Translations under genes and position numbers: made by a program
Source of the DNA: an uncultured Coriobacteriales bacterium
GTDB taxonomy: Bacteria > Actinomycetota > Coriobacteriia > Coriobacteriales > UMGS124
Assembly: GCA_934636245.1 (NCBI GenBank)
Contig: CAKUAI010000006.1
Span: forward strand, 8,548-72,547
Reading direction: 5' to 3'
Length of the DNA: 64,000 bases
Notes under the pieces: generated by a model
What the model was told of the DNA's origin: nothing
Database searches by the model: none
Seen by the model: only the letters and a program-made list of their open reading frames with translations
Shown: piece by piece, positions 6,393 to 61,193 of the stretch
Numbering within the stretch: position 1 is the first letter of the stretch
Layout of the letters: each line of letters starts with the position of its first letter

Positions 6393-6433
6393 GAACCCTC
6401 CCTATCGTCTATTTCTTAAACTAGCAGGTAAAA

Positions 6434-9163: not shown

Positions 9164-9188
9164 AGACGTTTATTTGATAGGTTCTGCC

Positions 9189-9227: not shown

Positions 9228-9281
9228 CGTATTTGGGTGCTACCATAGCTTATTGGCCCTCGACAGCAAAAAACAACAACG

Positions 9282-38785: not shown

Positions 38786-41248
38786 TCATTGCCAGGAAAG
38801 GACGCGGGCGCGCATGGTTTCGATGTCGAGCACGCCATGGGCGAAACCCTTGCGCACGAGGCTTTCGGGGACGAACTCGTCATACTTGTCGAAGATGGGC
38901 ACTTCCTCGGGATACACGAGCTCCATGGGGTCGGCGAGGGCAAGCGCTTCTTGCTGCACTGCTTGCAGGAAGTCGTCTCGCTCGGCCGGCATACGGAACT
39001 GGATGTAGTAGGGCCGCGCCGAGTCGATGCCCTTGATGCCCAGGCGAGGCGCGCACTTGATCTTGATGAGACGCTCGAGCGCCAGGAACGCATACGTGCC
39101 CAACCAGGGGAAAAGCGCCCAGGTATCGCCACCCAGGTTGATAAGCCAATCGCCCTCGGCCAAAGAGGCAGCGGCAGCATAGGGGAACTCGCCTGCGTCA
39201 GAGCCGCGCATGAGCGCCTCGTTGCCACGCACGCCCCCAGGACCGGCGACGCCCGCATCCTGCCAGTCAGTTGGATCTTCCCCCCACACGGCACCTTGCG
39301 CCGCTTGACGAGGCAAACGCGCTGCCCCCGCAGGCAGAGCCCCCGCCGGGCAGGCCGGCCCCGCAACAAGCCCCGAGGCACGTGCAACATGGCGTGCCTC
39401 CTCCAAGCGAGCCTGGGCGTTGCCCATGAGGTACATGTACTGCGTGTCCTCGGCCAGCACGCGCTGCATGCGTTCGAGCACGTGAGTGTGGATGTCGCCC
39501 GCAACCTCGCCAAAGTAGGCCGGCACCTTACCCTTCACCTGCGTGCAGTACACCACGTGGCGCTTGTGGTCGACCTCCTCGACAATCCACACATGGCCGG
39601 CGATGGCAATCTTCTCACCCGGGGGCGGCGGCTGCACAATCGTGCCCAGCTCCATAGACTCGCTGCGGCAGGTGTACTCCTCGTTGTCCTGGAACGTCGC
39701 GTAGAACTTGTAGGAGCTCGTGACGCGCTCACCGGCGAGGCCCACGATGAGACCGCCCTCATCGGTGCGCTCGATGTGGTCGATGTCCACGAGATGACGC
39801 AGGAGCACCCGATAGTCGTCGGGCGAGATGTTGTCGAAGCACGACAGATTGAGCACCTGGTTGGCCAGCTGAGCGGCACTCATCTCGCCGCACGAGGCAA
39901 GCGTCGCCATGGTCTGGTGATAGAGCAGGCTGAAAGGCATACGTCCCGTGCGCGGCGGCTCGACCCAGCGTTCCTCCAGGTACACCTGCACAAGGGCGAT
40001 GCCCTGCACGAGCTTCCAGGGGATGCACTCGGGCATGAGGGCGCGCGCCTCGGGCTCCTCCTCGCGCATGACAAACCACATCTCGCAAGGCCTCTCACGC
40101 CTGCCGGTGCGACCCATGCGCTGCAGGAAGCTGCTCACCGTGAACGGCGCGTCTATCTGGAAGGCTCGCTCAAGTCTGCCGATGTCGATGCCGAGCTCGA
40201 GAGTGGCGGTGGTCACCGTCGTGAACACGCGGTCATCGTCGCGCATGGCGTCCTCGGCGCTTTCGCGCAGCGACGAGGAGAGGTTGCCGTGGTGGATGAG
40301 GAAGCGGTCGGGCTGCCCTGTGGCCTCGCAGTACTGGCGCAGGCTCGTGGTGACAGCCTCGGCCTCCTCGCGCGAGTTGACAAAGACCAGGCACTTGGCG
40401 TCTTTGGTGTGCTCAAAGATGTAGGCGATGCCAGGGTCGGCGTGCTCGGGCGCCACGTCGCTGGCGGGCTCAAGCGCGGGTCCTGCGGCTCGGGCAGGCT
40501 CGCTTATCTGTGTGCGGGGATGGGGCCCGCGCTGCACTGCCTGGGGACCGCTCACGAAGAAATGCTCCATGGAGAGACGCCAGGTGCGGCCCTGCTCTTT
40601 GACCTGCGGGATGACGCAGCCCCGGCCCGTGCCGCGCGAGAGAATCTCGCCCGTGAGCTCGGGGTCGCCGATGGTGGCCGACAGACCAATGCGGCGGGGG
40701 TTGACCCCCGCCATGCGCGAGAGGCGCTCGATGCAGCACAGGGTCTGCCCGCCGCGGTCACCACGCAGAAGCGAATGCACCTCGTCGATCACCACAAAGC
40801 GCAGGTCGCTGAAAAGCCTGGCCACAGCCGAATGCTTGTGCATAAGCAACGCTTCGAGCGACTCGGGCGTAATCTGCAGGATACCCGAGGGATTCTTGAG
40901 CATGCGCGCCTTGTGGGAGGCGCTCACGTCGCCGTGCCAGTGCCACACGGGGATGCCGGCCTCGGCGCAGAGGTCGTTGAGACGATAGAACTGGTCGTTG
41001 ATGAGCGCCTTGAGCGGGCCTACGTAGATGGCGCCCACCGATGCCGGCGGGTTCTCGTCAAAGAGCGTGAGAATTGGAAAGAACGCCGCCTCAGTCTTGC
41101 CCGAGGCTGTGGAAGCCGCCAGGAGCACGTTGTCGTCGGTGTTGAAGATGGCGTCGCCGGCAGCCACCTGGATGCCGCGCAGCGACTCCCAGCCGTGCGA
41201 ATAGATGAAATCCTGGACAAAAGGCGCATAGCGGTCGAAGACGTTCAA
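38786..41248 (-). CDS. sngC: DEAD/DEAH-box (Lhr-like) helicase, Shango SngC-type
   Basis: Motif I AASTASGKTEAAF, motif II VVIDEVH, QRMGRTGRR. Third gene of the triad. TTG start 10 nt after the upstream stop. Confidence 0.75.
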   Translation of the reverse strand: MNVFDRYAPFVQDFIYSHGWESLRGIQVAAGDAIFNTDDNVLLAASTASGKTEAAFFPILTLFDENPPASVGAIYVGPLKALINDQFYRLNDLCAEAGIPVWHWHGDVSASHKARMLKNPSGILQITPESLEALLMHKHSAVARLFSDLRFVVIDEVHSLLRGDRGGQTLCCIERLSRMAGVNPRRIGLSATIGDPELTGEILSRGTGRGCVIPQVKEQGRTWRLSMEHFFVSGPQAVQRGPHPRTQISEPARAAGPALEPASDVAPEHADPGIAYIFEHTKDAKCLVFVNSREEAEAVTTSLRQYCEATGQPDRFLIHHGNLSSSLRESAEDAMRDDDRVFTTVTTATLELGIDIGRLERAFQIDAPFTVSSFLQRMGRTGRRERPCEMWFVMREEEPEARALMPECIPWKLVQGIALVQVYLEERWVEPPRTGRMPFSLLYHQTMATLASCGEMSAAQLANQVLNLSCFDNISPDDYRVLLRHLVDIDHIERTDEGGLIVGLAGERVTSSYKFYATFQDNEEYTCRSESMELGTIVQPPPPGEKIAIAGHVWIVEEVDHKRHVVYCTQVKGKVPAYFGEVAGDIHTHVLERMQRVLAEDTQYMYLMGNAQARLEEARHVARASGLVAGPACPAGALPAGAARLPRQAAQGAVWGEDPTDWQDAGVAGPGGVRGNEALMRGSDAGEFPYAAAASLAEGDWLINLGGDTWALFPWLGTYAFLALERLIKIKCAPRLGIKGIDSARPYYIQFRMPAERDDFLQAVQQEALALADPMELVYPEEVPIFDKYDEFVPESLVRKGFAHGVLDIETMRARVLSWQ

Positions 41249-41257
41249 GAGAGCCGC

Positions 41258-42856
41258 CTAGATGGTGAACTCGGCGAACGTGCGCGGTGCCGCAACCGGC
41301 TCGGCCGCCACGCGCTGGGTGCCAGGTGCCTCGGGGGCAGCCGACTGGATCACCTCGTCATACAGCGAGTTACCCTGCTGTGGGGCAGATGCTTGACCAA
41401 GGCCCGAAGCCACGTCACCCGCAGCAAAAGAGGGCGACGAGGCAGCCTGTTGCGCGGCGTAGCGACCGGAACCGGCCCGCCCAAGACCCGCTGCCGGCGC
41501 AGCGCTAGGCACGCTGCCCTCACCCTCCTCACACGGCAGGGTGGCCGGGCGCTGGGAGAACGCGGGATCGTTCACGAGCTCCTCAAGGGTGAGCGCAGGA
41601 TTCTGATAGAGGATGTCGAGCAGTTCCACGAAGTCGCGGATGATCTCACGCGGCGTGATATGGCTGTCGGCGCCCACGCGCGCGAGCTCTACCTGCAAGA
41701 AGGCCACCAGGTCCTCCTCGCGCAGAACGCGCTCATAGCCAAAGAAGCCCGCGTGGATGTCGGCGAGCTTCTCCACAAGCACGAACAGCTCCTCAGGGGT
41801 CAGCGGCTGGAGCCGGATGACGGGGGCAAGCATGTCCACATGGCCCTCGCTGGCAAAGCGCCCCTGAGCCAAGCGGCTGCGCAGCGCCTCGTAGCTGTAG
41901 AGGCCACGACGGCGGTCCTCCACGCATTGGGGCGTACCGCTCATGATGATGCCCAGGTAGCTCGCGCGACCCTGAAGCGTGTCATTGTACATGGTGAGAA
42001 TCTTCTCGTAGTTGTACTGGCGCGCCACGGCGTTGGGGATCTTGTACAGGTTCACGAGCTCGTCGACAAGCACAACAAGGCCCGCATAGCCCGCGCCCTT
42101 GAGGAAGCTTGCAAACAGCTTGATGTAGTCGTACCAGTCGTCATCTCCGATGACGATGTTCACGCCCAGGTCGGCCTTGGCCTCGGCACGGGTGCGATAC
42201 TCGCCGCGGAACCACCGTACGACATTGGCCTTTGTCTCGTCGTCGGACTCCACGTAAGCGCGGAAATACATGGCGAGCAGGCGGGCGAAGTCGTATCCGT
42301 GCACCATGTCCTGCAGCTGGCGAATGACCACGTAGATGCGTTTCTCGACCTCGGCGGCAAACGCGGGGTCGGCAGGATTTGCCAGGTCAAAGCCGCCCTC
42401 GCCGGCCACCTCCATCTGCACGTTGGAAATCCAACGGTCGAGAATGAGCGTGAGCGCGCCGCCCTCGGGGCGCGTCTTGGTAGAAAGGTTGCTGATGAGC
42501 TCGCGATAGGTGGCCAGGCCCTGGCCCTTCGTGCCCTGCAGGCGACGCTCGGGCGACAAGTCGGCGTCAGCTACGACGAAGCCCTTGCCCATGGCGTGGT
42601 TGCGGATGGTCTGCAGCAAGAAGCTCTTGCCCGATCCGTAGCGGCCCACGAGGAAGCGGAACGACGCGCCGCCCTCCCCCACGAGCTCGAGATCGTGCAG
42701 GAGCGCCTCAATCTCGGCTTGACGACCCACGGTGATGTACGGCAAGCCCACGCGCGGCACGACACCGCCCTTGAGGGAGTTGATGATGACCGAGGCGATG
42801 CGACGGGGCACCTTGGGGGCGTCGGCGGCGCTGGCGGCATTTGCTTTGGCGTTCAT
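41258..42856 (-). CDS. sngB: DUF2791/BrxD-like P-loop ATPase, Shango SngB-type
   Basis: N-terminal LKGGVVPRVGLPYITVGR, Walker A GRYGSGKSF. Confidence 0.75.
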   Translation of the reverse strand: MNAKANAASAADAPKVPRRIASVIINSLKGGVVPRVGLPYITVGRQAEIEALLHDLELVGEGGASFRFLVGRYGSGKSFLLQTIRNHAMGKGFVVADADLSPERRLQGTKGQGLATYRELISNLSTKTRPEGGALTLILDRWISNVQMEVAGEGGFDLANPADPAFAAEVEKRIYVVIRQLQDMVHGYDFARLLAMYFRAYVESDDETKANVVRWFRGEYRTRAEAKADLGVNIVIGDDDWYDYIKLFASFLKGAGYAGLVVLVDELVNLYKIPNAVARQYNYEKILTMYNDTLQGRASYLGIIMSGTPQCVEDRRRGLYSYEALRSRLAQGRFASEGHVDMLAPVIRLQPLTPEELFVLVEKLADIHAGFFGYERVLREEDLVAFLQVELARVGADSHITPREIIRDFVELLDILYQNPALTLEELVNDPAFSQRPATLPCEEGEGSVPSAAPAAGLGRAGSGRYAAQQAASSPSFAAGDVASGLGQASAPQQGNSLYDEVIQSAAPEAPGTQRVAAEPVAAPRTFAEFTI

Positions 42857-42982
42857 CGGGCAACCTTTCTGCAGGCAGGCATCTCAGCCCACCGATAAGC
42901 TCAATCGCAGATAGGATACCAAGCGCAGCGGACAAAAAGCCCCCGCGGGCCAAGTCAACACAGCACGCAAGGCAAGCGAACC

Positions 42983-44989
42983 TTACGAGAGAAGCTCTTC
43001 CACGTCGGGGCGGTAGTCTTCCACAAGTTGCGGAGTGTCGCCGTCGAACTCGATAGCGGCGTCACCAATCTCGTCGTAGAGCTTCTCGTTCACCGCATCC
43101 ACCATGAGGCTCGCCATGCCGGCGCCCACAGCCGCTTTCGCGCCCGCCACATCACCGGCAAGCAGAGCCTGAAGAAATACCAGCTCAGAGATAGTGAGAC
43201 CGCAGGGCGCACCTAGCGCAGCGCAATCCACGCCCAAAGCAAAATCCACGGCTTCTTTGCCCGCTGTAGGACGTACATTCAACCCAGGCGCCGCATTCAA
43301 AGCGGAAGCCATAGTCGACTCACCCGCCGCGAGAACCACGCCTGGAACAGCCTCCGTGCCTGATGGGGCAATCACGCCAGAAGCGAAAGCCGCAGGTGCC
43401 TTGCCTGCCGAGAAGACTGCGCTCGAATCAGCGGCCGCACCCGCCGCAGGAACCGCGCACGAACCAGGAGTCGCATGTGTCCTACCCGCTTGGGACATCG
43501 CATACAGACCGGCCTCCTCGCGCAGTGTGCCCAGGGCAGTCGTAACCGGGGACACCGCAGGCGCGACTCCCGAGTGCGGCGCAGCGCCCACGCCCGCCAC
43601 CGTAGGCTCCTCGGCTCGCTCCTCATCTACCAGGAGCGACTCGCGCGTCTTGACGGCGGCCGTGCGAATGCCGCGCAGAAGCGAACGGTCGATATGAATC
43701 TTGGGGGTCTGCGCCGCAAGCCAGGCCTCATGGGCGGCCGTGGCCTCCTTGGTGACAAAGCCCTCGAGGTAGCGGGGCACCTCGTAGGCGCGCACCTGCT
43801 TGGGATACTCCCATATGCGGCGCATCTCGTGATCCACCGTGTGCATCAAAAGCCCCAGGTCGCGGCTGCGCGTCTCCTCCGCACAGGGCACCCGGCGCCG
43901 CCATGTGCCGTCGCGGCAGATGTACGCCTCAGAATCGCTCACGCGGTACGTGGCATCGGGATGGGTCTGCGGGGCATAGAACACGGCGCCGTAAAACATG
44001 GGATGGGCACGGCGCTGCTCGGCACCAAACAGCCCGTCGACATAGCCCACTTTGCGGCGATGGGCACAATGCTGAACCAGGCGCGCAAAGACACCGCAGG
44101 TCACAGCCTGCGTCTCGGCCGGATAGTCCTTGAAGAACTTTGAGCCAGTGAGGCGAAACGACGACGCCAGGCACATGGCGTCAAACGTTTTCTGCGCCAT
44201 GTCACCCACAAGTGAACCCCCGGCAAGCACAAGCGCCTCGGCCTCGCGCAGCACGGGAACGGCGGCGTACACATCAACGACATCGCGCTGGGAGGCGGGG
44301 CCGCTCACGCGTTCGAGAAGAGATCGGTCGAGGCCATGGTACACGATGTAGTCGCGCAGCCAAATGTGCAGGTAGAAGTCGAGCAAGCCGACATCTGTCG
44401 CGGCCTGCTTCTTCCATGCAACCCAAAAGGACGTCAGTGCCGCAAGCGCAGGCAGACCCTCCTGCGTTCCCACGCCCATGAGCAGCTCATAGATATAGAC
44501 GAACGCATAGCTCGCCGTGGAGGCGGCAATGACACCCTTGCGGGCCTGGGCGCGCCACGCCAAGTACGACGAAAGTTGACGGTCGTTCATGGCCTGGTAG
44601 GTGGGGAAATATGACTTGAAGGGCACTGTGGGGTCGCCTGTGCCGTCGAAGTCGGCAAGGGCGCGCGCCTGCTCGTAGAACACCCTCGCCACGGGGGCGT
44701 ACCTCAAGTCCTCGCGCTGTGCAAGCTGATGGATGAGCTGGTAGGGTCGCGACGACTCCGTGTCGCGGCGAAACTGGCTCCCCGTGCGCAGGATAGGCTC
44801 GTCCTCGTACACAGAACTCGAGAATCGGCTCGATTGGAAGGCCTGCGACGAGGCGATGCGGTCAAGCGCCGCTCGGGCGTCGCCCGGCTTGAGATGCCTG
44901 TCAAACTGTGCCTGAGCCATGTCCATCACCCCGCTTGTACCGCGCGTCACGACACGTCCGATGCGCCGCAACCCCTTTGAGACCCCCAC
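42983..44989 (-). CDS. sngA: TerB-N/TerB-C domain protein, Shango SngA-type
   Basis: TerB-N-like FKSYFPTYQAMNDRQLSSYLAWR. TerB-C-like C-terminus LMVDAVNEKLYDEIGD. Start uncertain (alternative ATG 44926). Confidence 0.7.
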   Translation of the reverse strand: MGVSKGLRRIGRVVTRGTSGVMDMAQAQFDRHLKPGDARAALDRIASSQAFQSSRFSSSVYEDEPILRTGSQFRRDTESSRPYQLIHQLAQREDLRYAPVARVFYEQARALADFDGTGDPTVPFKSYFPTYQAMNDRQLSSYLAWRAQARKGVIAASTASYAFVYIYELLMGVGTQEGLPALAALTSFWVAWKKQAATDVGLLDFYLHIWLRDYIVYHGLDRSLLERVSGPASQRDVVDVYAAVPVLREAEALVLAGGSLVGDMAQKTFDAMCLASSFRLTGSKFFKDYPAETQAVTCGVFARLVQHCAHRRKVGYVDGLFGAEQRRAHPMFYGAVFYAPQTHPDATYRVSDSEAYICRDGTWRRRVPCAEETRSRDLGLLMHTVDHEMRRIWEYPKQVRAYEVPRYLEGFVTKEATAAHEAWLAAQTPKIHIDRSLLRGIRTAAVKTRESLLVDEERAEEPTVAGVGAAPHSGVAPAVSPVTTALGTLREEAGLYAMSQAGRTHATPGSCAVPAAGAAADSSAVFSAGKAPAAFASGVIAPSGTEAVPGVVLAAGESTMASALNAAPGLNVRPTAGKEAVDFALGVDCAALGAPCGLTISELVFLQALLAGDVAGAKAAVGAGMASLMVDAVNEKLYDEIGDAAIEFDGDTPQLVEDYRPDVEELLS

Positions 44990-45078
44990 TTAAACACAAA
45001 GCGGGACCCGCACCATCCTGGAACGGGCCCCGACAGAAAAGAAGCGAAATGCAAGCAACCGTGATGCCGACGGACAGT

Positions 45079-48648: not shown

Positions 48649-48723
48649 TCCCCGATAGCTCAATGGTAGAGCACTCGGCTGTTAACCGAGTTGTTGCAGG
48701 TTCGAGCCCTGCTCGGGGAGCCA
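48649..48723 (+). tRNA. tRNA-Asn (GTT)
   Basis: Acceptor TCCCCGA/TCGGGGA, anticodon loop CTGTTAA, TTCGAGC T-loop, encoded CCA. Confidence 0.9.
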
Positions 48724-50157
48724 TTCGCTATTCTTACGAACCAGTTCGATACGAGCTGGTTCGTTTTTTTGTGCCTGTTGGTGGTCCCAGTTGAGGGTCA
48801 CGACAGCCGCGTCATTGTCCAAGACAACAGACCACACGAAGCAGTCGATGATCTGCCTGTCGCTCATCGAGGTGCCGGAGAGCAAGAACTCCGTGAACTC
48901 CTCGACGGTGACGGTGGTCTCCTGCACCATGGCGAGCTCGGCCTCGGCGTGCGCCTTGGCGGCCTGCAGCTCGTCCATCCTCTCCCTCATGGCGGGCGTG
49001 TACAGCCCCTCCTCGATGGCGCGGACAAGGTTGCGCATGGCGTCGTCCGCCTTGCGTATGTCGGCCTGGATGCCGGCGCGCCTGCGCTCCACGGCGGCGC
49101 CGGTCTTGGATGCCACGACCATCTCTGCGATGTGCTCGGCCTCGGCGCGGTCGGACAGCATGGCGCGGATGCCCTGCACCACGGCGCGCTCGAGCCACTG
49201 CGCGCGGGTCCTCCGGATATGGTTGCGCGCGCCGCCGGCGCTGCAGGTGTAGTAGTCGTACCGCACGCTGCCCCTGCCGTGTGCGGACTCGCCCGATAGC
49301 CCGTGGCCGCATACGGCGCAGATGGCCTTGCCGACGAGCGGGTACTCCCTGTAGTCCTGCCTCTCGCGGTCGCGGCTCCTGGCGGCGACCTTCTCGTTTG
49401 CGGACTCCCACAGCGCCTCATCCACGATGGCGTCGAAGGCGTTCGGGGTCACGACCGTGCCCCACCGGTACTCCCCCACATACCGGCGCGACCTGATGAT
49501 CTTCCCGACAACCTGGTCCCTCATCGGCCTGCCTTGCGCGTTGACCACCCCGCGCGCGGCAAGGTCTGCGGCGATGCGGTGGTTCGTCTCACCGGCGGCG
49601 CGGCGCTCGAAGATCTCGCGCACAACGGCGGCCTCGGCCTCGTCCACAATGTATTTCCCGCCGACGTTGCGGTACCCGTACGGCCTGGGGCCGCCGTTCG
49701 GCATCGCCTTGAGGGCATTGCCCTCCATCCCTCGCCTCGTGCGCACGGAGGTCTTGCGGCTCTCGCAGGCGGCCAGCCCCTCGAGGAGCTTCTCGTAGAT
49801 GATGCCCTCCGGCGACTCGGGGATGCGCTCGAGCGCGGAGACCAGCTGCACGCCGTGGCGCTGAAGCTCGCGCTTGTATATCGGCGCGTCGAACTCGCTC
49901 CTTGAGAACCTGTCCATCATGTACACGACGACGAGGTCGGACTCCCCCGCCGAGGAGATCATACGCTGGAACTCCGGTCGCTCGTCAGTACGGCCCGACA
50001 CGGCGTGGTCGCAGTACTCCCGCACGACCTCGATGCCCTCGCGTGCGCACCACGCGCGGCACTCGCGCAGCTGGTCGTCGATGGACGCCTCGCGCTGCTT
50101 CGAGCAGCTGAAGCGCGCGTAGATGACGGCCGTCCTCGCCTTGCCCTGCATGTCCAC
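48682..50157 (-). CDS. large serine recombinase
   Basis: Resolvase domain AVIYARFSCSKQ, MMDRFSRS. Recombinase and zinc-ribbon domains (CAVCGH..YYTC). The last ~28 codons run through the tRNA-Asn terminator and tRNA 3' half. Confidence 0.9.
   Translation of the reverse strand: MDMQGKARTAVIYARFSCSKQREASIDDQLRECRAWCAREGIEVVREYCDHAVSGRTDERPEFQRMISSAGESDLVVVYMMDRFSRSEFDAPIYKRELQRHGVQLVSALERIPESPEGIIYEKLLEGLAACESRKTSVRTRRGMEGNALKAMPNGGPRPYGYRNVGGKYIVDEAEAAVVREIFERRAAGETNHRIAADLAARGVVNAQGRPMRDQVVGKIIRSRRYVGEYRWGTVVTPNAFDAIVDEALWESANEKVAARSRDRERQDYREYPLVGKAICAVCGHGLSGESAHGRGSVRYDYYTCSAGGARNHIRRTRAQWLERAVVQGIRAMLSDRAEAEHIAEMVVASKTGAAVERRRAGIQADIRKADDAMRNLVRAIEEGLYTPAMRERMDELQAAKAHAEAELAMVQETTVTVEEFTEFLLSGTSMSDRQIIDCFVWSVVLDNDAAVVTLNWDHQQAQKNEPARIELVRKNSEWLPEQGSNLQQLG
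48736..48770 (+). terminator. terminator after tRNA-Asn
   Basis: ACGAACCAG..CTGGTTCGT perfect 9-bp stem followed by TTTTTTT. Confidence 0.8.
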
Positions 50158-50211
50158 GGATGCCTCCTACTCCTAAATACTCAATTCGAAAATCAGTAAT
50201 AATCCGCTACG

Positions 50212-51141
50212 CTAAACTTGCGCCTCGCCGAAGCCGGGTATCTCGGGCGTCACGGTCGGCGGGATCACGTCGTGCACCTTGGTGATCACGTAGCTGTCGG
50301 CCTTGTCGATGAAGATGTTCAGCCTGCGGTCGAAGGCCTGCACCTTCTTGAGGTCGACGACCATGACGGTGCCCATGGTGAAGCTCAGCGACGGCAGCGC
50401 GTCGAGGAAGCCCTTGTCCGCGATGCTTGCCGATATCGACGCGCCCGCGCTGTTGACGAAGCCCCACTTGCGGTCGGCGGACATGACGAAGTTGGTCTTC
50501 ACGACGGAGAGCGACACGGCCTTCTCGACCGCCTCGCGCGTGCGCTCGCCCTCGCTCACGGGGGACGCGGCGATCGGGCCGAAGTCGTCGCGACCGACGA
50601 GCACCTCGCCCGGCGTCGACGCGCCGATGCTGAGCGACTCGACAGCCTCGTCGCCATCGAGGCTCGAGAAGGTTTCGCCCACCGCCTTGCCCGCCTTGGG
50701 GCTGTTGACGTAGAGGTTGTACGTGTTGCAGCCGACCGTGACGTTGGAGCCGTTGCCGGCAGTGACGATGACCGAGCCGTCGCCGGTCTGCCGTATCTCC
50801 TTGACGCCGCCGCCGCGCGCCACGTCGCGCCTGAAGCGGTAGAACTCGGCGGCCGTGGCCACGACGTCGGGGGCGATGGGGGCCATGCAGGCCACGACGT
50901 TTCGCAGGGCGTCCATGAGGCCCATCACCACGTCGACGTCCACCGAGACGCAGCCCGGCCGCACCGCCCGCACGTTGACGTCGACCGCCACGCGCGGGTT
51001 GATGAGCCTGGCCGCCTCCTGCACGACGGTCGCGTAGCCGAACAGCGTCGCCGTAAAGGCCCCGATGCCGACCTCCTCGGTCGGGCCCCCGAACTCGATT
51101 GTGACCCTCTCTCGTTCCATCTTCCTTCTCACTCTCAGCAT
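50212..51141 (-). CDS. orphan prophage cassette protein A (paralog of B and C)
   Basis: Shares leader and first codons MLRVRRKMERERV with C, and a C-terminal ~95-aa module with B and C. Alternative start ATG 51120. No family recognised. Confidence 0.7.
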   Translation of the reverse strand: MLRVRRKMERERVTIEFGGPTEEVGIGAFTATLFGYATVVQEAARLINPRVAVDVNVRAVRPGCVSVDVDVVMGLMDALRNVVACMAPIAPDVVATAAEFYRFRRDVARGGGVKEIRQTGDGSVIVTAGNGSNVTVGCNTYNLYVNSPKAGKAVGETFSSLDGDEAVESLSIGASTPGEVLVGRDDFGPIAASPVSEGERTREAVEKAVSLSVVKTNFVMSADRKWGFVNSAGASISASIADKGFLDALPSLSFTMGTVMVVDLKKVQAFDRRLNIFIDKADSYVITKVHDVIPPTVTPEIPGFGEAQV

Positions 51142-51171
51142 GCGCGCCTCCTCGGCGCGATTGTAGGGCGC
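51104..51171 (-). promoter_or_regulatory. repeated promoter/leader module, copy A
   Basis: Minus strand reads GCGCCC-TACAAT-CGCGCC-GAGGA-GGCGCG-C-ATG..GAGAAGGAAG-ATG. Identical by eye to 53842..53909. Confidence 0.6.
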
Positions 51172-51176
51172 GACGG

Positions 51177-51202
51177 TCATTTTGCCGAAGTCGGTAAAAT
51201 GA
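51177..51202. repeat. cassette-junction palindrome A
   Basis: TCATTTTGCCGA-AG-TCGGTAAAATGA (one G/A mismatch), 30 nt after the Abi stop. Confidence 0.8.
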
Positions 51203-51231
51203 TTCCCAGCCTGTCTCTCGGCGCCGCGCGC

Positions 51232-52206
51232 CTACGCCCGTCCTTGCTGGCCGCCCGTGAGATAGTGTCGCTCAAGATCGGCGACTTTATCGATTAGCTT
51301 CGGAAAGCCAACCTCGACAAAAAGCGACGTGAACCCAGGACACTCAAGCTTGTATCTCGAATACAGGGAATTGATGCCTTTTATAAGGCGAATCAGCTCC
51401 AGAGGCGGGAGGAAGCGTTCGAGATGGGAAATCATCTCGATGTACCCGACGTTTTTTCGGGCTCCGACCTTTGCGCAATAAAACCTCTCGTCATGGGCGC
51501 AGATATTCCTGAACCTGACCAGTATCTCAAGGCTTATGCTCGCCTTTTTGGGAGAGAAGAAGCCGAGGTACCTGTCTCCCAGAAGCGAGTTTGAGACCGC
51601 GATCATCTTGCACACCGATGACCTGTCGCTGTCCGTCATAAGGTTGAACATGTGCTCGAGATTTCCGAACGTCATGTTGTTTGAGAGCACCCAGAGCGGT
51701 ATATGGGTGTGGTTCTTTTTGTAATGCTTGACGAATGGTGCATCCCTTTTGTTCTCTGCCACGTCGAACGCCAACATGAGCTTGCGCATCTCATCGGCGT
51801 ATTCCCGCCTATTTGATGATTTGCGGGACAGATACTCTGATTCGGCCGCATAGTTCGAAACGTCTTTGTATGCAGCATGGCCGCGATGCTTTTCCGAGAA
51901 GCAATACGAGATCGCTGTCCTCGTGCATGCCTCGGCCTTTATCAGATAGCCGAATGTTAGATTCCGCAGCTCTCTATCAAACCTGTACAGGTCGTAGATA
52001 TTGCTGAATGTGGCGCCATCGATGTATCTGTCGTCACCGGCGCTTACGGTGGCGGCCCTGTCGATAAACGGCGTTTTATATCCATTGATTATGGAGTAAT
52101 AGCCTTCGCGCATGAGTATGCGCTCTGTCTCTGAGTCAGTGTGCAGCCCCCGCCTTTTTAACAGGGCCATTTGCTCGTCGATGGTGAGGAACGGCTTGTC
52201 ATCCAT
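51232..52206 (-). CDS. Abi_2 (AbiD/AbiF-like) abortive infection protein
   Basis: KPFLTIDEQMALLKRRGL..YYSIINGY N-terminus typical of Abi_2. Visibly lower GC than the flanks. ATG 52206 follows GGAGGG. Confidence 0.85.
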   Translation of the reverse strand: MDDKPFLTIDEQMALLKRRGLHTDSETERILMREGYYSIINGYKTPFIDRAATVSAGDDRYIDGATFSNIYDLYRFDRELRNLTFGYLIKAEACTRTAISYCFSEKHRGHAAYKDVSNYAAESEYLSRKSSNRREYADEMRKLMLAFDVAENKRDAPFVKHYKKNHTHIPLWVLSNNMTFGNLEHMFNLMTDSDRSSVCKMIAVSNSLLGDRYLGFFSPKKASISLEILVRFRNICAHDERFYCAKVGARKNVGYIEMISHLERFLPPLELIRLIKGINSLYSRYKLECPGFTSLFVEVGFPKLIDKVADLERHYLTGGQQGRA

Positions 52207-52210
52207 TTTG

Positions 52211-52257
52211 CCCTCCAAAACCAAACAAGCGGCTACCCCGTAAGGCAGCCGCTTGTT
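52211..52257 (-). terminator. terminator-like hairpin inside the Abi leader
   Basis: Perfect 11-bp stem AACAAGCGGCT/AGCCGCTTGTT followed on the minus strand by TGGTTTTGG, which runs into the RBS. Confidence 0.6.
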
Positions 52258-52304
52258 GGTGGACCCGGGGCCCGTAGGCTACCCGAATCAATACCGCTGC
52301 CAGT

Positions 52305-52332
52305 AATATATCAACACGCACTTTAAAGTCAA
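52305..52332 (-). promoter_or_regulatory. sigma70-like promoter for the Abi leader
   Basis: Minus strand TTGACT, 16 nt, TATATT. Confidence 0.5.
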
Positions 52333-52390
52333 CAACTAAACCCATAGATTCATCCAACACGCCACAGCGCCTCGGCTCACCTACTGGAAT

Positions 52391-52414
52391 CATTTTCGCG
52401 AGCTCGCGAAAATG
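52391..52414. repeat. cassette-junction palindrome D
   Basis: CATTTTCGCGAG/CTCGCGAAAATG perfect palindrome, 28 nt after the stop of B. Confidence 0.85.
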
Positions 52415-52441
52415 GAAGCTTCCAGGGCTTTCGGCTCCGCG

Positions 52442-52798
52442 CTACGCCTCGCTGTCGAAGAGCGTCCGCTGCTCCTGCGTCGGCAGCTTCACGTACTCGA
52501 GCACGCGCTCTATGGCGTAGGACGTCGTGAGTCTGTTGTTCCTCCCGACGGACTGCTCGGTGCGCAGGTCGACCCGCAGCATGTCGCCGCCGCCGAGGCG
52601 GACGTCGCCGGAGGCGACCTTTGCGAGGAACTCCTCGTCCTCGATGGTGACGTGGCGGTAGACCGCGCCCGAGTCGCCGGGCGTGGTGAACGAGTAGCCG
52701 GACCTCCCGCCGTGGTACGACCCGGAGTCCGGGCACAGGTACATGCCATGCGTCCTGAAGACAATGCTCTTTGACATCTTCCTTCTCACTCTCAGCAT
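52442..52798 (-). CDS. orphan prophage cassette protein B (stand-alone shared module)
   Basis: Aligns over its whole length with the C-terminus of C. Same leader. Alternative start ATG 52777. Confidence 0.7.
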   Translation of the reverse strand: MLRVRRKMSKSIVFRTHGMYLCPDSGSYHGGRSGYSFTTPGDSGAVYRHVTIEDEEFLAKVASGDVRLGGGDMLRVDLRTEQSVGRNNRLTTSYAIERVLEYVKLPTQEQRTLFDSEA

Positions 52799-52828
52799 GC
52801 GCGCCTCCTCGGCGCGATTGTAGGGCGC
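52775..52828 (-). promoter_or_regulatory. repeated promoter/leader module, copy B
   Basis: 54 nt identical by eye to the distal part of copies A and C. Identity ends exactly at the second ATG. Confidence 0.6.
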
Positions 52829-52835
52829 ACGGGGA

Positions 52836-52861
52836 CCATTTTCGTGACCTCACGAAAATGG
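52836..52861. repeat. cassette-junction palindrome B
   Basis: CCATTTTCGTGA-CC-TCACGAAAATGG perfect palindrome, 32 nt after the stop of C. Confidence 0.85.
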
Positions 52862-52892
52862 GGGCTGCCTGGACTTTCGGCGGCGTGGCGGC

Positions 52893-53879
52893 CTATATGC
52901 CCAGGCCCTCCTGCTGGCACGGTCTGTACGGCTCGTACGAGTGCACCTTGTCGATCGTGTAGGCCCACGTCACCGCACCCATCTTGGACACCCTTTGCAC
53001 GGCCGTCATGTCGACCCTGAGCGTGTCCTTTGCGAAGAGCCTCACCTCGGCGCGCTCGAGCCTCTCACGGAACTCCTCGTCCGCTATCGCGACCTTCCTG
53101 TACGTGGTCGCGTCCGCGCCGTCGCCCGTGGTGAAGGTGTAGCCGCGCTCCGCGCCGTCGTAGGAGCCCGACGCGGGGTGGAGGATCACGCCGTGCATCT
53201 CAAAGCTCGTCTTCTCCGAGGTGACCTCGTCGAGCATGTCGGAGTTGCCAGTCGCCACCTTGCGGTAGGTCGCCAAAGGCTCCCCGTCCTCCTGCGTGAA
53301 CGTCGCCGGGTACCCCGCCGCCGGAGGTGTGTGCGGGTCGCCGACGTATATCTGGACGCTCTGGGCGTTTATGCTGCCCACGATCGGCCCCATGGCGGCC
53401 GTGGTGTACTGCTCGGCCACCTTCTGGGACTGCACGACCCTGTGCGTGTCCTCGTCGACCGTGACGGCGTCGTCGCCCGACCCATAGGTGTACGACCCGT
53501 CGCCGTTGTCGGAGAAACGGTCGACGCGGCCCCTCACCTTTCGGACGATGGCGGGCAGCGTGGCCGACCCACCGCCCAGGAAACCGAGAATCGCGAGGCC
53601 GGTGCTCAGCGCCCCACCTTCGCTGGACGAGAGGAACCCGAGCAGGCCGCTGGCGACCTCGGTGGCAAACTCGACTATGAACGACCCCTCGCGGAAGGGC
53701 CGCACCTTGATGGACACCTCGTCCTGGCACCCGAGCACCGTGACGGTCTCGCGCACGAGGCCGCTGAAGCTGGACAGCACCTTCGCCAGCTCCTGGGCAC
53801 CGACCCCGGTCTCAGGGTCGACGCCGCAAATCCTGTAGACAACCCTCTCTCGTTCCATCTTCCTTCTCACTCTCAGCAT
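52893..53879 (-). CDS. orphan prophage cassette protein C (paralog of A and B)
   Basis: MLRVRRKMERERV start shared with A. C-terminal ~105 aa align with B. Alternative start ATG 53858. No family recognised. Confidence 0.7.
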   Translation of the reverse strand: MLRVRRKMERERVVYRICGVDPETGVGAQELAKVLSSFSGLVRETVTVLGCQDEVSIKVRPFREGSFIVEFATEVASGLLGFLSSSEGGALSTGLAILGFLGGGSATLPAIVRKVRGRVDRFSDNGDGSYTYGSGDDAVTVDEDTHRVVQSQKVAEQYTTAAMGPIVGSINAQSVQIYVGDPHTPPAAGYPATFTQEDGEPLATYRKVATGNSDMLDEVTSEKTSFEMHGVILHPASGSYDGAERGYTFTTGDGADATTYRKVAIADEEFRERLERAEVRLFAKDTLRVDMTAVQRVSKMGAVTWAYTIDKVHSYEPYRPCQQEGLGI

Positions 53880-53909
53880 GCGCGCCTCCTCGGCGCGATT
53901 GTAGGGCGC
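53842..53909 (-). promoter_or_regulatory. repeated promoter/leader module, copy C
   Basis: Identical by eye to 51104..51171. Confidence 0.6.
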
Positions 53910-53912
53910 ATT

Positions 53913-53946
53913 GGAACCATTTTATTGAGGTCAACAAAATGGTTCC
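53913..53946. repeat. cassette-junction palindrome C
   Basis: GGAACCATTTT-ATTGAGGTCAAC-AAAATGGTTCC with 11-bp perfect outer arms and a partly symmetric centre. Confidence 0.85.
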
Positions 53947-53957
53947 GAACTGGGGCA

Positions 53958-54064
53958 TCACTTACGCGACGTCGCGGGACGGAACGCGATCACGTGCGTC
54001 CCCCGGGCGGTTTTCGGGAAGCGCGCACAGGCCCTTGGCCATGGTGGCGAGGGACTCCCGGCCG
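53958..54064 (-). pseudogene. remnant copy of a repressor gene 3' end (direct repeat of 54711..54816)
   Basis: Minus-strand translation GRESLATMAKGLCALPENRPGDAR.. versus GRESLAGVAKGLSALPENRPGDAR.. at the end of the intact repressor. Confidence 0.7.
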
Positions 54065-55631: not shown

Positions 55632-56093
55632 ATGTTCAACCGACCCACTGACACGACCCCCGGCTACCTGCGCATCGGCAACGCCGAGTACCCCCTCACC
55701 AGGGACGGCATGCGCGAGGCTTTCGCCTCCCAGCTCGACGACCAAGCCCACCTGAACGAGGACGACGTGCACATGCTCGCCATGCTGGTGGGCGAGGAGC
55801 TGTGCCGCCACAACCTCAAGGACGTCGACGGCAAGACGTCGGCCTGCAGGATGTCGCTGCGCGGAGTGTACATCCCAGACACCTGCGACGAGCAAGCCAG
55901 CGCCTACGTCCGCGTCGACGGCCCCTACTTCAAGGACCGCGAGGGGATCAGCTTCGAGCCGAACGGCTTTATCGGCTTCGCGGGGTGGGCGGACTCGCGC
56001 AACGAGCGCCCGTTCCTCGTCGCCTTCGCGCGCTGGCTCGACGAGTGGCTCCTCTCGCCCGACATGCGCGACCTCGGCGGGGAGGGGGAGTAG
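55632..56093 (+). CDS. hypothetical phage early protein
   Basis: ATG follows AAGGAGG. Paralogous to the next gene. Confidence 0.65.
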   Translation: MFNRPTDTTPGYLRIGNAEYPLTRDGMREAFASQLDDQAHLNEDDVHMLAMLVGEELCRHNLKDVDGKTSACRMSLRGVYIPDTCDEQASAYVRVDGPYFKDREGISFEPNGFIGFAGWADSRNERPFLVAFARWLDEWLLSPDMRDLGGEGE

Positions 56094-56095
56094 CC

Positions 56096-56527
56096 ATGCA
56101 CACGAGGGAACTGGGTCTGACGCGCGAGGGGGTGCGGGACGGGTTCGCCCGCGCGATAGGCACGTACGACGGGCTCACCAAGAACGACGTCTGCCAGCTC
56201 GCGCACATGGTGGGCGTGGAGCTGTGCCGCCGCAACAGGCGCATCGCGGGCGGGAGGGCGAAGAGCGCGCAGATGGAGGTGGGCGCGGTCAGCGTCAGCT
56301 GCTACGAGGGCTGCGTCGAGTCCGCCCTCATCCGCGTCGACTGCTCGGACCACGTGACCCGCGAGGCGGTCGCCCTCAACCGCGACTGCTCCCTGGACAT
56401 CGCCGAGTGGGCGGGCGAGAGGGACGTGATGCCGTTCCTGCGCGCGCTCGACGCCTGGATGGACGAGGTCAAGGACGAGCTGTTCTGGCAGCGCATGCAC
56501 GCGGATGGGGGCGGTAGGGATGATTAG
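56096..56527 (+). CDS. hypothetical phage early protein (paralog of 55632..56093)
   Basis: Shared pattern: LTR(D/E)G(M/V)R(E/D)(A/G)FA, MVG(E/V)ELCR.N, FL.A...WLDE. Confidence 0.65.
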   Translation: MHTRELGLTREGVRDGFARAIGTYDGLTKNDVCQLAHMVGVELCRRNRRIAGGRAKSAQMEVGAVSVSCYEGCVESALIRVDCSDHVTREAVALNRDCSLDIAEWAGERDVMPFLRALDAWMDEVKDELFWQRMHADGGGRDD

Positions 56528-57014
56528 CGATCCTGGAAGCCCGCTCAACGAGCTGGGAGGGATGCCGAGCCCGCTCACGACGGGCGAGCGCGCCCGCATC
56601 GAGGAGCTGGGCGAACTCTCGAGGTTCCTGCGCGAGGTGGCCGCGTCGGAGGACGCCATCGACCCCGACTACCTCAGGTTCAATGCCGCCGCCCTCGACT
56701 TCAGGGCCGAGCTCATCGTCGAGGACGCGCGGAGGCTCATGCGCAAGGGGCCCGCGCAGATTGTCGACGGTACCAGGGTGCGCCTGAGCGTCTTCGGTGG
56801 TGCGCGCCTCGGGCCCATGGGCGCGGGCGAGGTCGAGGGCCCATGCCGCGCGCTGGAGGGCGCCGCCGTGGACGTCGTGCGCGCCGTCAACGACCTGCGC
56901 GGCCAGCAGGCGTTCAGGTACAGCGATGGCCTGGCGCTGCTCGCCAACCAGCTCCTCTCGGCAGCCCGTTACATGCGGAAGATGTCGGAAGAGATGGAGG
57001 CCGGCGATGAGTGA
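56520..57014 (+). CDS. hypothetical phage protein
   Basis: ORF 56505..57014. ATG 56520 overlaps the upstream stop. Confidence 0.55.
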   Translation: MISDPGSPLNELGGMPSPLTTGERARIEELGELSRFLREVAASEDAIDPDYLRFNAAALDFRAELIVEDARRLMRKGPAQIVDGTRVRLSVFGGARLGPMGAGEVEGPCRALEGAAVDVVRAVNDLRGQQAFRYSDGLALLANQLLSAARYMRKMSEEMEAGDE

Positions 57015-57348
57015 CGAGGGAGTGCCTTGCTACAGGCGCATGTCGGCGCCGTCGAGCGCCGAGGAGCTTGAGGGGGCCGCAGGGCTCTTGCGAGACGCGG
57101 CCGCGTGCATCGACAGCGCGGCCGAGCGGATGCACTGGATGGAGGCGCACCAGTTCGGCAGCGCGCTCCTGTGGTGCAAGCAGGCGCTTTCGACCGTGTC
57201 GGCGCGGCTCGGCGAGCGCGCCGAGAGGGTCAGGGACCAGGCCAGGCGCGAGGAGCGGTTCGAGCTGGGGTATGTCGACGCGCCCGACATCGACGCGGGA
57301 ATCTTCGCGCGGGCGAACCCAGGCTTTTCGGATGGGGGGCGATCTTGA
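57007..57348 (+). CDS. hypothetical phage protein
   Basis: ATGA overlap with the upstream stop. Frame of ORF 56797..57348. Confidence 0.55.
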   Translation: MSDEGVPCYRRMSAPSSAEELEGAAGLLRDAAACIDSAAERMHWMEAHQFGSALLWCKQALSTVSARLGERAERVRDQARREERFELGYVDAPDIDAGIFARANPGFSDGGRS

Positions 57349-57494
57349 TGGAGACCGCAAAGGAGCATCGCATACCGCCCGAGAGCGTGAGGGCGACAGT
57401 GATGGCAAACGCGCTGTGGCCGATTTTCATGGCGTGGCGCGAGAAAAAGTCAGGCGAGACGGCCGCAAAGCGCCAGGCGGCCGCGGCGAATTAG
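57348..57494 (+). CDS. small hypothetical phage protein
   Basis: ATG overlaps the upstream TGA. 48 codons. Confidence 0.35.
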   Translation: METAKEHRIPPESVRATVMANALWPIFMAWREKKSGETAAKRQAAAAN

Positions 57495-57508
57495 GAGAGG
57501 TGGGAGAC

Positions 57509-57808
57509 ATGAAGGTATCGACCGAATGCGCGAGGTGCGGCCGCGCGGTGGCCATGCACAGCATAGAGGTCCCCGGCGGCAAGAAGGTGTACACGGAGAG
57601 CGACACGGGCTTCGTCGAGGCGCTCGCCATCGTCGCCGTCGACGGCACCGGCGCGTGGGCCTTCGACCTCGAGGCGGGCCCCGGCACGGGCGTGTACGCG
57701 CCACTGTGCCAAGGGTGCCTCATGGACCTCGGCAGGTGGCTGCGAGACGGCCGCGCCGGTGCGGGCAGGCATGACGTCGTGCCGCACACGGAGGACGTGG
57801 ACTTTTAG
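57509..57808 (+). CDS. hypothetical zinc-ribbon protein
   Basis: ATG follows GGAGAGGTGGGAG. CxxC..CxxC (CARCG, CQGC). Confidence 0.55.
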   Translation: MKVSTECARCGRAVAMHSIEVPGGKKVYTESDTGFVEALAIVAVDGTGAWAFDLEAGPGTGVYAPLCQGCLMDLGRWLRDGRAGAGRHDVVPHTEDVDF

Positions 57809-58014
57809 GAAGCATGCCCCCGGCGCGGCCCGCCGGCACTTCGGGCCCGCGCCAATACTCTCGCGAGCCCGTCGAAACGCCGCGGCCTTGGCACCGGCGC
57901 CCACCGAGGCGGTGTGACGGCCGGCGGCCCGCGCCGGGGGCATGCGGGAAACGAAAGCGGCCCCGCGCGAGGTTGCAGCTCGCCGGGGCCATGGTCGACC
58001 GGAAGGTGACGGAA

Positions 58015-58242
58015 ATGGATTCTAACCCAAGCATCGCGGATTTTGAAGAGGAAGACGACGGGCGCGACGGCCCGCTCGACAGGCTCTGCCTCGTGGTCGC
58101 GGCGCTCTCGATACCGGGCGTCCTGCCGGCCCTCGCGATCGCGGCCGCGCCCGTCGTGGCCGACGCGCTCGGCCCGTGGCTGCTGCCGCTCCTCGCGGCG
58201 CCCGCGGTCTACGGGTTCCTGTGGTTCATGACACGCAATTAA
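58015..58242 (+). CDS. small membrane protein
   Basis: Acidic N-terminus followed by two hydrophobic segments. Alternative start 57991. Confidence 0.45.
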   Translation: MDSNPSIADFEEEDDGRDGPLDRLCLVVAALSIPGVLPALAIAAAPVVADALGPWLLPLLAAPAVYGFLWFMTRN

Positions 58243-58312
58243 TCGGTAAGCCTTAGCCGCCCCGCCCGGCCTTGGACCAGGCGGGGCGCACTGTTGAGAT
58301 TGGAGCACATGT

Positions 58313-58621
58313 ATGACGAGGGGATCTGCAAGGATGAGGAAGAAGGCGGCTCCCGCCGCCTATGCGGCACGCGCCGACGCGGCCGCCTGCAGCGCCGCCA
58401 AGGCGCTCGTGATCGCCGAGGACGCAGCGGAGGACGTGCGCCGCATGAAGGGCGACCTCGCGGTCATGGAGCGCTCGCTGGAGGTCGCGACCGACGGCGT
58501 GGACATTCTCTTCCGCATCGTCGAGGACGTGGAGCGGTCCTGTATGAAGATCGGGACCACCCTCTTCGTCGCGGCCATCGTGAGCTTCGTGCTCATGGTC
58601 TGCGCGGCCGTGCTCCAATAG
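58313..58621 (+). CDS. small C-terminally membrane-anchored protein
   Basis: GGAG lies 7 nt upstream. C-terminal TM segment LFVAAIVSFVLMVCAAVL. Confidence 0.5.
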   Translation: MTRGSARMRKKAAPAAYAARADAAACSAAKALVIAEDAAEDVRRMKGDLAVMERSLEVATDGVDILFRIVEDVERSCMKIGTTLFVAAIVSFVLMVCAAVLQ

Positions 58622-58659
58622 CGGCCGGTCTCCCCTACTGAGCGTTGATGTGGAGATTT

Positions 58660-59064
58660 ATGGGCGATGCCAAGAAAGGTGCATCGAGAAGATGCAAGCG
58701 GTGGAGCAGCGCGGAGGTCGACTACATGAGGTCGCACGCGGCCGACGGCCCGGACCTCGTCGCGGCGCACCTCGGCCGCACGGCGTCGTCGGTCAAGTCC
58801 AAGGCCCAGGAGCTCGGCGTGTCCCTCTGCCGCGTCCCATGGGCCGCCGACGGCGACCTCTGCCCCCGGTGCGGCGCGCGCCCGGTCAGGAAGGGCGCCC
58901 CGGGATGGCGCGAGGGCCTGTGCGAGGCGTGCCACTTCTCCGTCCTCTCCGAGAGGACGGACGAGAGGGCGGCCGCCGAGCGCGAGCGCCGCAGGTACGA
59001 CTTGGCCCGGCGGAACTTGTCGAACGAGAGGAAAAAGAGGATGACAGATGGCGCAAAAGACTAA
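58660..59064 (+). CDS. hypothetical protein with zinc ribbon
   Basis: ATG 58660 follows GGAG. CPRCG..CEAC. Confidence 0.5.
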   Translation: MGDAKKGASRRCKRWSSAEVDYMRSHAADGPDLVAAHLGRTASSVKSKAQELGVSLCRVPWAADGDLCPRCGARPVRKGAPGWREGLCEACHFSVLSERTDERAAAERERRRYDLARRNLSNERKKRMTDGAKD

Positions 59065-59410
59065 CTGGGTCTGCCCCAAGTGCCACGCGCTCGTCGCGCG
59101 CGGCTGCGACTGCCCTCGGTGCGGTGGCGCGAGGAGGGACGACGGCAGGTACGCGTACAGGCGCGGCTACAAGGGCGCGTACGACTCGGCGAGGCAGACG
59201 GTGTGCGCCGCCCAGCACGGGGCGTGCGCGCTCTGCGGGGCACACGCCGCCGACTGCAGGGGCGGTAGGTGGTACACGCGCGGGCTCGGCGAGGTGCACC
59301 ACAGGGTGCCGCTCTCGCAGGGCGGCGGGTCGGGGTGCGACAACCTCGTGCTGCTCTGCCTGTCGTGCCACGCGGCGCTCGACGGCAAGACCGGCAAGGG
59401 GGCGGTGTAG
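59048..59410 (+). CDS. HNH endonuclease
   Basis: VHHRVPLSQGG..NLVLLCLSCH, plus N-terminal CxxC pairs. Confidence 0.8.
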   Translation: MAQKTNWVCPKCHALVARGCDCPRCGGARRDDGRYAYRRGYKGAYDSARQTVCAAQHGACALCGAHAADCRGGRWYTRGLGEVHHRVPLSQGGGSGCDNLVLLCLSCHAALDGKTGKGAV

Positions 59411-59824: not shown

Positions 59825-59833
59825 GAGGCCGAC

Positions 59834-61191: not shown

Positions 61192-61193
61192 CG

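Follow-up and report, generated by a model that had tools for sequence, protein, structure and literature searches.

The 64,000-nt stretch of contig CAKUAI010000006.1 analysed here (the window) comes from an uncultured Coriobacteriales bacterium, and three adjacent genes on its minus strand very probably constitute a complete Shango (SngABC) anti-phage operon of the A-B-C type, located in the chromosome of an uncultured human-gut member of the Eggerthellaceae. A first-pass annotation of this DNA had placed three minus-strand open reading frames (ORFs) at 42983–44989, 41258–42856 and 38786–41248, with gaps of 10–130 nt between them. These coordinates hold, every peptide that it quoted is found in the translations, and the gaps of 126 nt (sngA–sngB) and 9 nt (sngB–sngC) fit the range given. 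With a revised start for sngA, the locus comprises the following features.

42983–44926, minus strand: sngA, 647 amino acids (aa) from the ATG at 44926; TerB_N/TerB_C protein
42857–42982, minus strand: sngA–sngB spacer, 126 nt, with a weak terminator-like hairpin at 42938–42951
41258–42856, minus strand: sngB, 532 aa; BrxD-like ATPase, PF10923
38786–41248, minus strand: sngC, 820 aa; Lhr/BrxHI-like superfamily 2 (SF2) DEVH helicase
45005–45035, minus strand: G+C-rich hairpin, then a T-rich stretch, between the upstream HAD-hydrolase gene and sngA

The assignment to Shango rests on a search of each protein against the PADLOC library of hidden Markov models (HMMs; PADLOC-DB), together with Pfam and NCBIfam. 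SngA matches the SngA model (7.2e-61, 205 bits, residues 60–667) and nothing else in PADLOC; SngB matches the SngB model (4.4e-189, 627 bits), with BrxD as the next family (8.5e-52, 175 bits); and SngC matches the SngC model (6.1e-268, 889 bits, residues 3–813), followed by BrxHI (1.3e-118, 395 bits). The best model of each protein is the matching Sng component, in agreement with the earlier reading of the TerB/ATPase/helicase triad as Shango, and the window has the three mandatory components side by side. Pfam detects TerB_N (8e-24) and TerB_C (2.6e-11) in SngA, as well as PF10923 (formerly DUF2791, now named BrxC_BrxD) in SngB at 1.1e-168, and the Pfam domain calls in the three proteins are far beyond chance.

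The A-B-C order, with co-directional and adjacent genes, is common to the window, the related loci L086 and L087 and the plasmid loci L091–L093. The last three are Shango-type loci on annotated plasmids of Clostridium, Phaeobacter and Bacillus (given as three phyla), on which A-B-C also lies on one strand, in agreement with the first-pass annotation, which had matched this order to Shango. The Shango systems of Escherichia coli (Millman et al. 2022) and Pseudomonas aeruginosa PA14 (Johnson et al. 2023), which protect against phages, agree with the window locus in their three components and in gene order: a TerB_N/TerB_C protein comes first, then a PF10923 ATPase, then a DEAD/DEAH helicase. The window locus differs from these tested systems in its host, a Gram-positive, high-GC gut anaerobe in which the anti-phage function is predicted; in its minimal SngA, which lacks the TerB core and a transmembrane segment and has a 134-aa disordered linker; and in its setting, which is chromosomally fixed and outside a variable hotspot. 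Low-complexity insertions also make the three proteins of the window (647, 532 and 820 aa) longer than the corresponding PADLOC Sng profiles, which have lengths of 528, 439 and 720.

A Coriobacteriia version of Shango had been expected to be a distant representative. The origin in this class is confirmed by the neighbouring xdhC, which shows 98% identity to several uncultured Eggerthellaceae metagenome-assembled genomes (MAGs; class Coriobacteriia), and identical SngB occurs on human-gut metagenome contigs, Hadza samples included. The supposed distance did not hold up, given very high HMM scores and the size of the family around SngC, which has over 8000 protein matches in the database at E ≤ 1e-20; gut Coriobacteriia and Firmicutes supply many of these, at 65–76% identity. 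The SngB of a Clostridium estertheticum plasmid is 65% identical to that of the window. These matches place the locus in a large, well-populated Gram-positive gut subfamily of Shango. The identification is correct but fairly ordinary, and it reveals no new kind of system. Only proteobacterial examples of Shango have been tested for defence, and the window locus demonstrates the existence of a highly conserved subfamily in Gram-positive gut bacteria; it also gives the phage–host biology of gut Eggerthellaceae, a poorly studied field, one further annotated defence system.

SngA consists of two recognizable domains and a long linker, and contains the segments FKSYFPTYQAMNDRQLSSYLAWR (aa 103–125) and LMVDAVNEKLYDEIGD (aa 607–622).

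44270–44692, minus strand: TerB_N domain, aa 79–219 (residues 100–240 in the 668-aa numbering of the longest ORF)
43214–43615, minus strand: disordered linker, aa 438–571, 134 residues, rich in Ala, Gly and Pro
42986–43213, minus strand: TerB_C domain, aa 572–647, with a predicted local distance difference test score (pLDDT) of 81–97

A 41-sequence alignment gives F83, Q86, Y106, P108, Y110, W124, R125, R129 and E147 as invariant columns of TerB_N, including the motif YFPTY...W-R, and N613, D622, D637 and Y638 as invariant residues of TerB_C. The AlphaFold2 (AF2) model, likewise built from a 41-sequence alignment, has a pLDDT above 90 over about aa 60–410, dropping to 78–85 up to aa 437 and to below 50 in the linker, at least 65% of which is A, G, P, S, T or Q. 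This indel-rich linker varies more than any other segment of the locus (78–86% nucleotide identity). Among close relatives it is 57% identical, compared with 93–99% for the folded domains of SngA, and variation is confined to it. A Foldseek comparison of the model with the Protein Data Bank (PDB) yielded no match at E < 1; the matches that it did list were winged-helix-like and at chance level. A PDB sequence search with SngA and SngB found no relatives, so no Shango structure appears to have been deposited. SngA is also the fastest-evolving component, with 54–62% identity between lineages in which SngB and SngC stand at 79–80%; between the window and Olsenella, the identities are 38% for SngA, 65% for SngB and 68% for SngC.

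At E ≤ 0.01, Pfam finds only TerB_N and TerB_C in the window SngA, with no TerB core (PF05099). No transmembrane segment was found in the protein either, the maximum 19-residue hydropathy of 1.56 lying within a confidently folded TerB_C helix, and the window SngA is probably a minimal, soluble form. The alphaproteobacterial SngA of Phaeobacter has a TerB core (PF05099, 1.2e-08) between TerB_N and TerB_C, where the window protein has its linker, and the SngA of Bacillus has an N-terminal TM2 membrane domain. Among the architectures compared, that of the window is the simplest, with TerB_N and TerB_C only and apparently soluble, and it combines a confidently predicted fold with no detectable PDB relative. 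From these domain contents, we argue that a general Shango mechanism cannot depend on the TerB core or on membrane anchoring.

The P-loop of SngB, GRYGSGKSF at aa 71–79, includes the Walker A motif GRYGSGKS (aa 71–78; 42623–42646, minus strand), and Walker B is LVVLVDELV (aa 260–268; 42053–42079, minus strand). Beyond the ATPase lies a disordered tail that varies in length and sequence between loci.

41261–41548, minus strand: low-complexity C-terminal tail of SngB, about aa 437–532, roughly 95 residues

The tail ends in FAEFTI (41261–41278, minus strand), which is identical in the window, in L006–L008, L086 and L087 and in the Olsenella locus L089; the SngB proteins of Clostridium and Phaeobacter have a related hydrophobic C terminus. 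A second segment, SLYDEVIQ (41345–41368, minus strand), is conserved in the Eggerthellaceae loci, reads P/TLYDEVIQ in L086/L087 and is absent from the Olsenella L089 protein. Both FAEFTI and SLYDEVIQ are candidate short linear docking motifs.

SngC starts with a TTG codon 9 nt past the sngB stop and has the helicase motifs listed here, with ASTASGKTEAAF at aa 45–56 and VIDEVH at aa 153–158.

41081–41116, minus strand: motif I, ASTASGKT
40775–40792, minus strand: motif II, VIDEVH (DEVH)
40667–40687, minus strand: motif III, SAT
40097–40123, minus strand: motif VI, QRMGRTGRR

Pfam assigns DEAD (6e-26) and Helicase_C (5e-16) to SngC, together with a weak Lhr winged-helix match. Its closest solved relatives, found by PDB sequence search, are the DNA-repair helicases Lhr of Mycobacterium smegmatis (5v9x/7lhl, 1e-28) and MrfA/YprA (6znp; MrfA, 8e-24). 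Unlike these helicases, SngC has a family-specific C-terminal third and always occurs with SngA and SngB. The best NCBIfam match is a ligase-associated DNA-damage-response helicase, below cut-off, and TIGR04121 (196.8, cut-off 850), PRK13767 (157.8, cut-off 849) and PRK09751 (79.8, cut-off 1496) all fall short. Because no Lhr-type NCBIfam equivalog cut-off is reached, we class SngC as Lhr-like and not as an Lhr orthologue.

All three sng genes are under purifying selection. Pairwise Nei–Gojobori estimates of nonsynonymous (dN) and synonymous (dS) divergence give a dN/dS of 0.03 for SngC, 0.10–0.16 for SngB and 0.17–0.19 for SngA, and the dS of the Shango genes (0.27–0.37) is slightly above that of adjacent genes (0.19–0.27). 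Nucleotide identity of the operon to three sister species is about 93–95%, equal to that of the flanks; only the low-complexity segments, where indels also occur, are lower, at 78–86%. In all seven species-level relatives (XdhC identity of at least 85%), sngC lies directly upstream of xdhC. Because identity and dS resemble those of the flanks and dN/dS is low, we conclude from these comparisons that the operon is functional and vertically inherited in a genus-level clade, and no recent arrival; the three genes are apparently a functional copy of Shango. Recent horizontal acquisition was considered and rejected, as the G+C content at third codon positions (GC3) is only slightly below that of the neighbours, and the operon and its flanks show the same nucleotide identity to related species. 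A clean insertion boundary of the locus was looked for, and none was definable.

In the more distant Eggerthellaceae loci that were retrieved, no Shango lies closer than 10 kb to xdhC. In other genera of the family, xdhC most often follows purF-purM-purN, and none of the pur genes of this block is present in the 64-kb window; the Shango–xdhC junction therefore coincides with a lineage-specific rearrangement. Across L013–L085, the purF-purM-purN-xdhC block at times has variable genes inserted just upstream of xdhC (about 5000–10000 per locus).

The mechanism of Shango is still unknown, as the first-pass annotation had stated; a 2025 preprint and a 2026 review call it unclear or unknown. In type-2 bacteriophage exclusion (BREX; Pgl), the helicase BrxHI is tightly linked in a dyad with BrxD, an ATPase classed as AAA+ of the ORC/Cdc6 type, and the proposed role of BrxD is to load BrxHI or to activate it (PMC12839542). 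Judged by homology, SngB–SngC is the same module as BrxD–BrxHI, a homologous ATPase and Lhr-like helicase encoded by adjacent, tightly linked genes, and Shango probably shares its loader-and-motor logic. Because of this relationship and the Lhr-like character of SngC, we put forward as the likeliest scheme, at somewhat less than even likelihood, a translocase that is loaded by the ATPase, has phage DNA or replication intermediates as its target and is under the control of SngA. SngB would assemble on DNA and load or activate SngC, a translocase with 3′-to-5′ polarity as assumed from Lhr, which would act on phage DNA or replication intermediates and block phage replication without killing the cell. 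SngA would be the sensor or regulator that gates this motor pair, with its folded N-terminal core and TerB_C joined through a long, flexible tether; it may be the specificity component, because it diverges faster than SngB and SngC and has no Foldseek match in the PDB. SngA also lacks any enzymatic fold that could be recognized. The tethered C-terminal FAEFTI peptide of SngB could serve as a docking element within the complex.

We hypothesize, as an unlikely but further-reaching reading, that in the Eggerthellaceae clade Shango became a fixed, vertically inherited chromosomal module with a pared-down, soluble SngA, the minimal unit being a cytoplasmic nucleic-acid-sensing complex held together by tethered short motifs (TerB_C on the 134-aa linker, and the FAEFTI tail). 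If so, the idea of 'membrane surveillance' would be wrong for at least a large Gram-positive subfamily, and the module might also serve genome maintenance besides defence. The modest value of the locus lies in its minimal SngA, the modelled SngA core without a Foldseek PDB match and the clear BrxD/BrxHI relationship; because it unites a minimal SngA, a confidently modelled core with no detectable PDB relative and a BrxD–BrxHI module, the Gram-positive subfamily could offer a clean minimal system for biochemistry.

Several points weigh against a defence operon acting in this way. In the literature searched, the systems of E. coli and P. aeruginosa are the only ones with recorded anti-phage activity, and no Gram-positive homologue is among them. 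No effector domain that could harm the phage, such as a nuclease or toxin, is recognizable in SngA, SngB or SngC. The AF2 model of SngC, from 24 close homologues, is poor (pLDDT of 50.6) and leaves the C-terminal domains unresolved; Foldseek ranks Lhr at the top for this low-confidence model, with MrfA, Brr2 and RecQ also matching, which adds nothing to the sequence result. The role of the linker as a tether and that of the FAEFTI tail in docking are putative. The locus also sits between housekeeping genes, is fixed in its clade and diverges with its flanks, a pattern less expected of a mobile defence island and one that would suit a housekeeping role in DNA processing as well.

The relationships of SngB and SngC could alternatively mean that the two proteins are BrxD and BrxHI, serving as accessories to type-2 or type-6 BREX, and that the locus is a fragment of such a system. 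SngB matches BrxD in both PADLOC (8.5e-52) and NCBIfam (1.6e-51), SngC matches BrxHI (1.3e-118), and PF10923 carries the name BrxC_BrxD; the Sng models nevertheless score far above (SngB, 627 bits compared with 175; SngC, 889 bits compared with 395), and the NCBIfam BrxD family NF033438 is matched at 175.7 bits, short of its cut-off of 350. The operon is headed by a TerB_N/TerB_C gene, which defines Shango and not BREX, in place of the PglX methyltransferase, PglZ, BrxC and PglW of type-2 BREX. No ORF of the size of PglX, PglZ, BrxC or PglW occurs in the 64-kb window, and the large genes screened, the largest of which encode 666 aa (no PADLOC match) and 643 aa (RecQ), gave no PADLOC match to the BREX core. 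With no core genes and the BrxD cut-off missed, a BREX fragment is effectively refuted for the window, and we assign it a negligible probability. We regard it as highly improbable that SngA marks a tellurite-resistance (Ter) type system for membrane stress or 'membrane surveillance' and acts at the membrane. This suggestion derives from published speculation on Shango and Bunzi, which rests on the membrane association of TerB, and some SngA homologues do have a TM2 domain (Bacillus) or a TerB core (Phaeobacter); the window SngA has no PF05099 match and no transmembrane segment, both of its partners are nucleic-acid motors, and no TerC/TerD/TerZ-type gene was found among the window genes screened (part of the window). 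Without a TerB core domain in SngA, the tellurite-resistance reading fails, and the domain content of the window subfamily does not support membrane surveillance. Bunzi (BnzA) and Dionysus (DinB) share with Shango a Ter-family domain and an association with phage defence, but they pair a TerB domain with membrane or pore-forming partners, whereas the window SngA has TerB_N and TerB_C only and is partnered by an ATPase and a helicase; the PADLOC search of the three window proteins gave no match to either system.

Genome maintenance by a domesticated housekeeping or stress-response module for DNA processing, composed of an Lhr-like repair helicase, an AAA+ partner and a TerB-N/C scaffold, is an improbable main role for the triad, although it accommodates several of the observations. 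A 2012 comparative-genomics study of Ter systems reportedly predicted a DNA-processing role for Ter-associated genes. This prediction is cited by Millman et al., and it is in keeping with the fixed position beside xdhC in 7/7 related species representatives, the synonymous divergence near that of the flanks, the very strong selection on SngC (dN/dS of 0.03) and the housekeeping neighbours (oligopeptide transporter, xdhC, HAD hydrolase, def and tRNAs). Among solved structures, SngC is closest to helicases of DNA repair (Lhr and MrfA), and its best, below-cut-off NCBIfam match is a DNA-damage-response helicase. By contrast, family members in E. coli and P. aeruginosa protect against phages, and homologues are frequent on plasmids, near relaxase or integrase genes and other defence genes. 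The lack of Shango within 10 kb of xdhC in other Eggerthellaceae genera retrieved makes the system patchy at the family level, as is usual for defence; SngA diverges much faster than its partners, as expected of a phage-facing component; and a tRNA-linked element with AbiD lies 3.7 kb away.

At the 5′ end of the Shango operon, the ATG at 44926 is the likely start of sngA, replacing the GTG at 44989 that opens the longest ORF, because it is preceded by a GGGGTG Shine–Dalgarno-like run and is used by the 647-aa gene calls on five independent metagenome contigs. The hairpin at 45005–45035 was read directly off the sequence (GGGGCCCG...CGGGTCCC GCTTTGTGTTT), and a strict hairpin scan did not report it; this hairpin probably marks the 5′ limit of the Shango transcription unit. 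The distance from sngA to the HAD gene is 152 nt. In a related lineage, an 84-aa gene lies directly upstream of sngA (L087, 7537–7791; L088, 967–1221) and has no counterpart in the window. The plasmid loci L091–L093 have overlapping sngA and sngB, where the window has its spacer instead. A 'split' Shango occurs in Olsenella sp. An293 (L089/L090, 8001–16400), with sngA, a MupG gene and sngB, then three opposite-strand genes, one of which encodes a PIN_3 protein (L090), and then sngC.

To the left of the operon lie xdhC and an oligopeptide ABC transporter operon; to the right are the HAD-hydrolase gene, a gene encoding 361 aa, tRNA-Gly, tRNA-Leu and def, and then tRNA-Asn. HAD phosphatases occur in Ter operons, which is why the HAD gene was considered as an accessory. 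It and the 361-aa gene were rejected in this role, as both are absent from the related loci L086/L087 and the hairpin separates both from sngA. Similarly, xdhC, which follows sngC in three lineages, was rejected as a fourth component: it has orthologues without Shango in the other genera retrieved, and its own ribosome-binding site. Two contigs with Eggerthellaceae-type xdhC are filed under other genera: L012 (CAVJGP010000123.1, filed as Alistipes onderdonkii), which also carries sngC (85% and 81% identity to the window), and L074 (CAVGWX010000109.1, filed as Prevotella sp. CAG:279). Both contigs are probably mis-binned in the filed assemblies.

Beyond def, the region at 48649–54000 looks like an integrative defence element at tRNA-Asn, with the following features.

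48649–48723, plus strand: tRNA-Asn
48682–50157, minus strand: large serine recombinase gene, the 3′ end of which overlaps tRNA-Asn by about 42 nt
50212–51180 and 52893–53879: two PDC-S42-like paralogues, behind the recombinase
51232–52224: AbiD/Abi_2 gene, behind the recombinase

Another strain (L002) has HicA/HTH_17 genes in place of this element, and Shango and its immediate neighbours are unchanged. A search for attachment-site repeats of at least 16 nt found none for the element, and an Rfam search returned three tRNAs only. An identical sequence of about 55 nt is present in three copies (51118–51204, 52775–52861 and 53856–53942), each of which contains, on the minus strand, a TACAAT box and a GAGGAGG ribosome-binding site as well as the first eight codons (MLRVRRKM) of a gene. 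The copies precede three different genes (50212–51180, 52377–52853 and 52893–53879), which look like paralogous cassettes that have their 5′ region in common and lie beside the recombinase.

Elsewhere in the window, a 643-aa helicase (18861–20792, minus strand) matches the PADLOC models DpdF (5e-191) and PsyrT (4e-104). Neither assignment was retained, as its Pfam domains (DEAD, Helicase_C, RecQ_Zn_bind, RQC and HRDC) are those of a canonical RecQ; this gene is a likely false positive where PADLOC HMM matches are read without system rules. The G+C content of 56001–62000 is 0.70–0.72, compared with about 0.62–0.65 elsewhere, and this part contains many ORFs that overlap on both strands.

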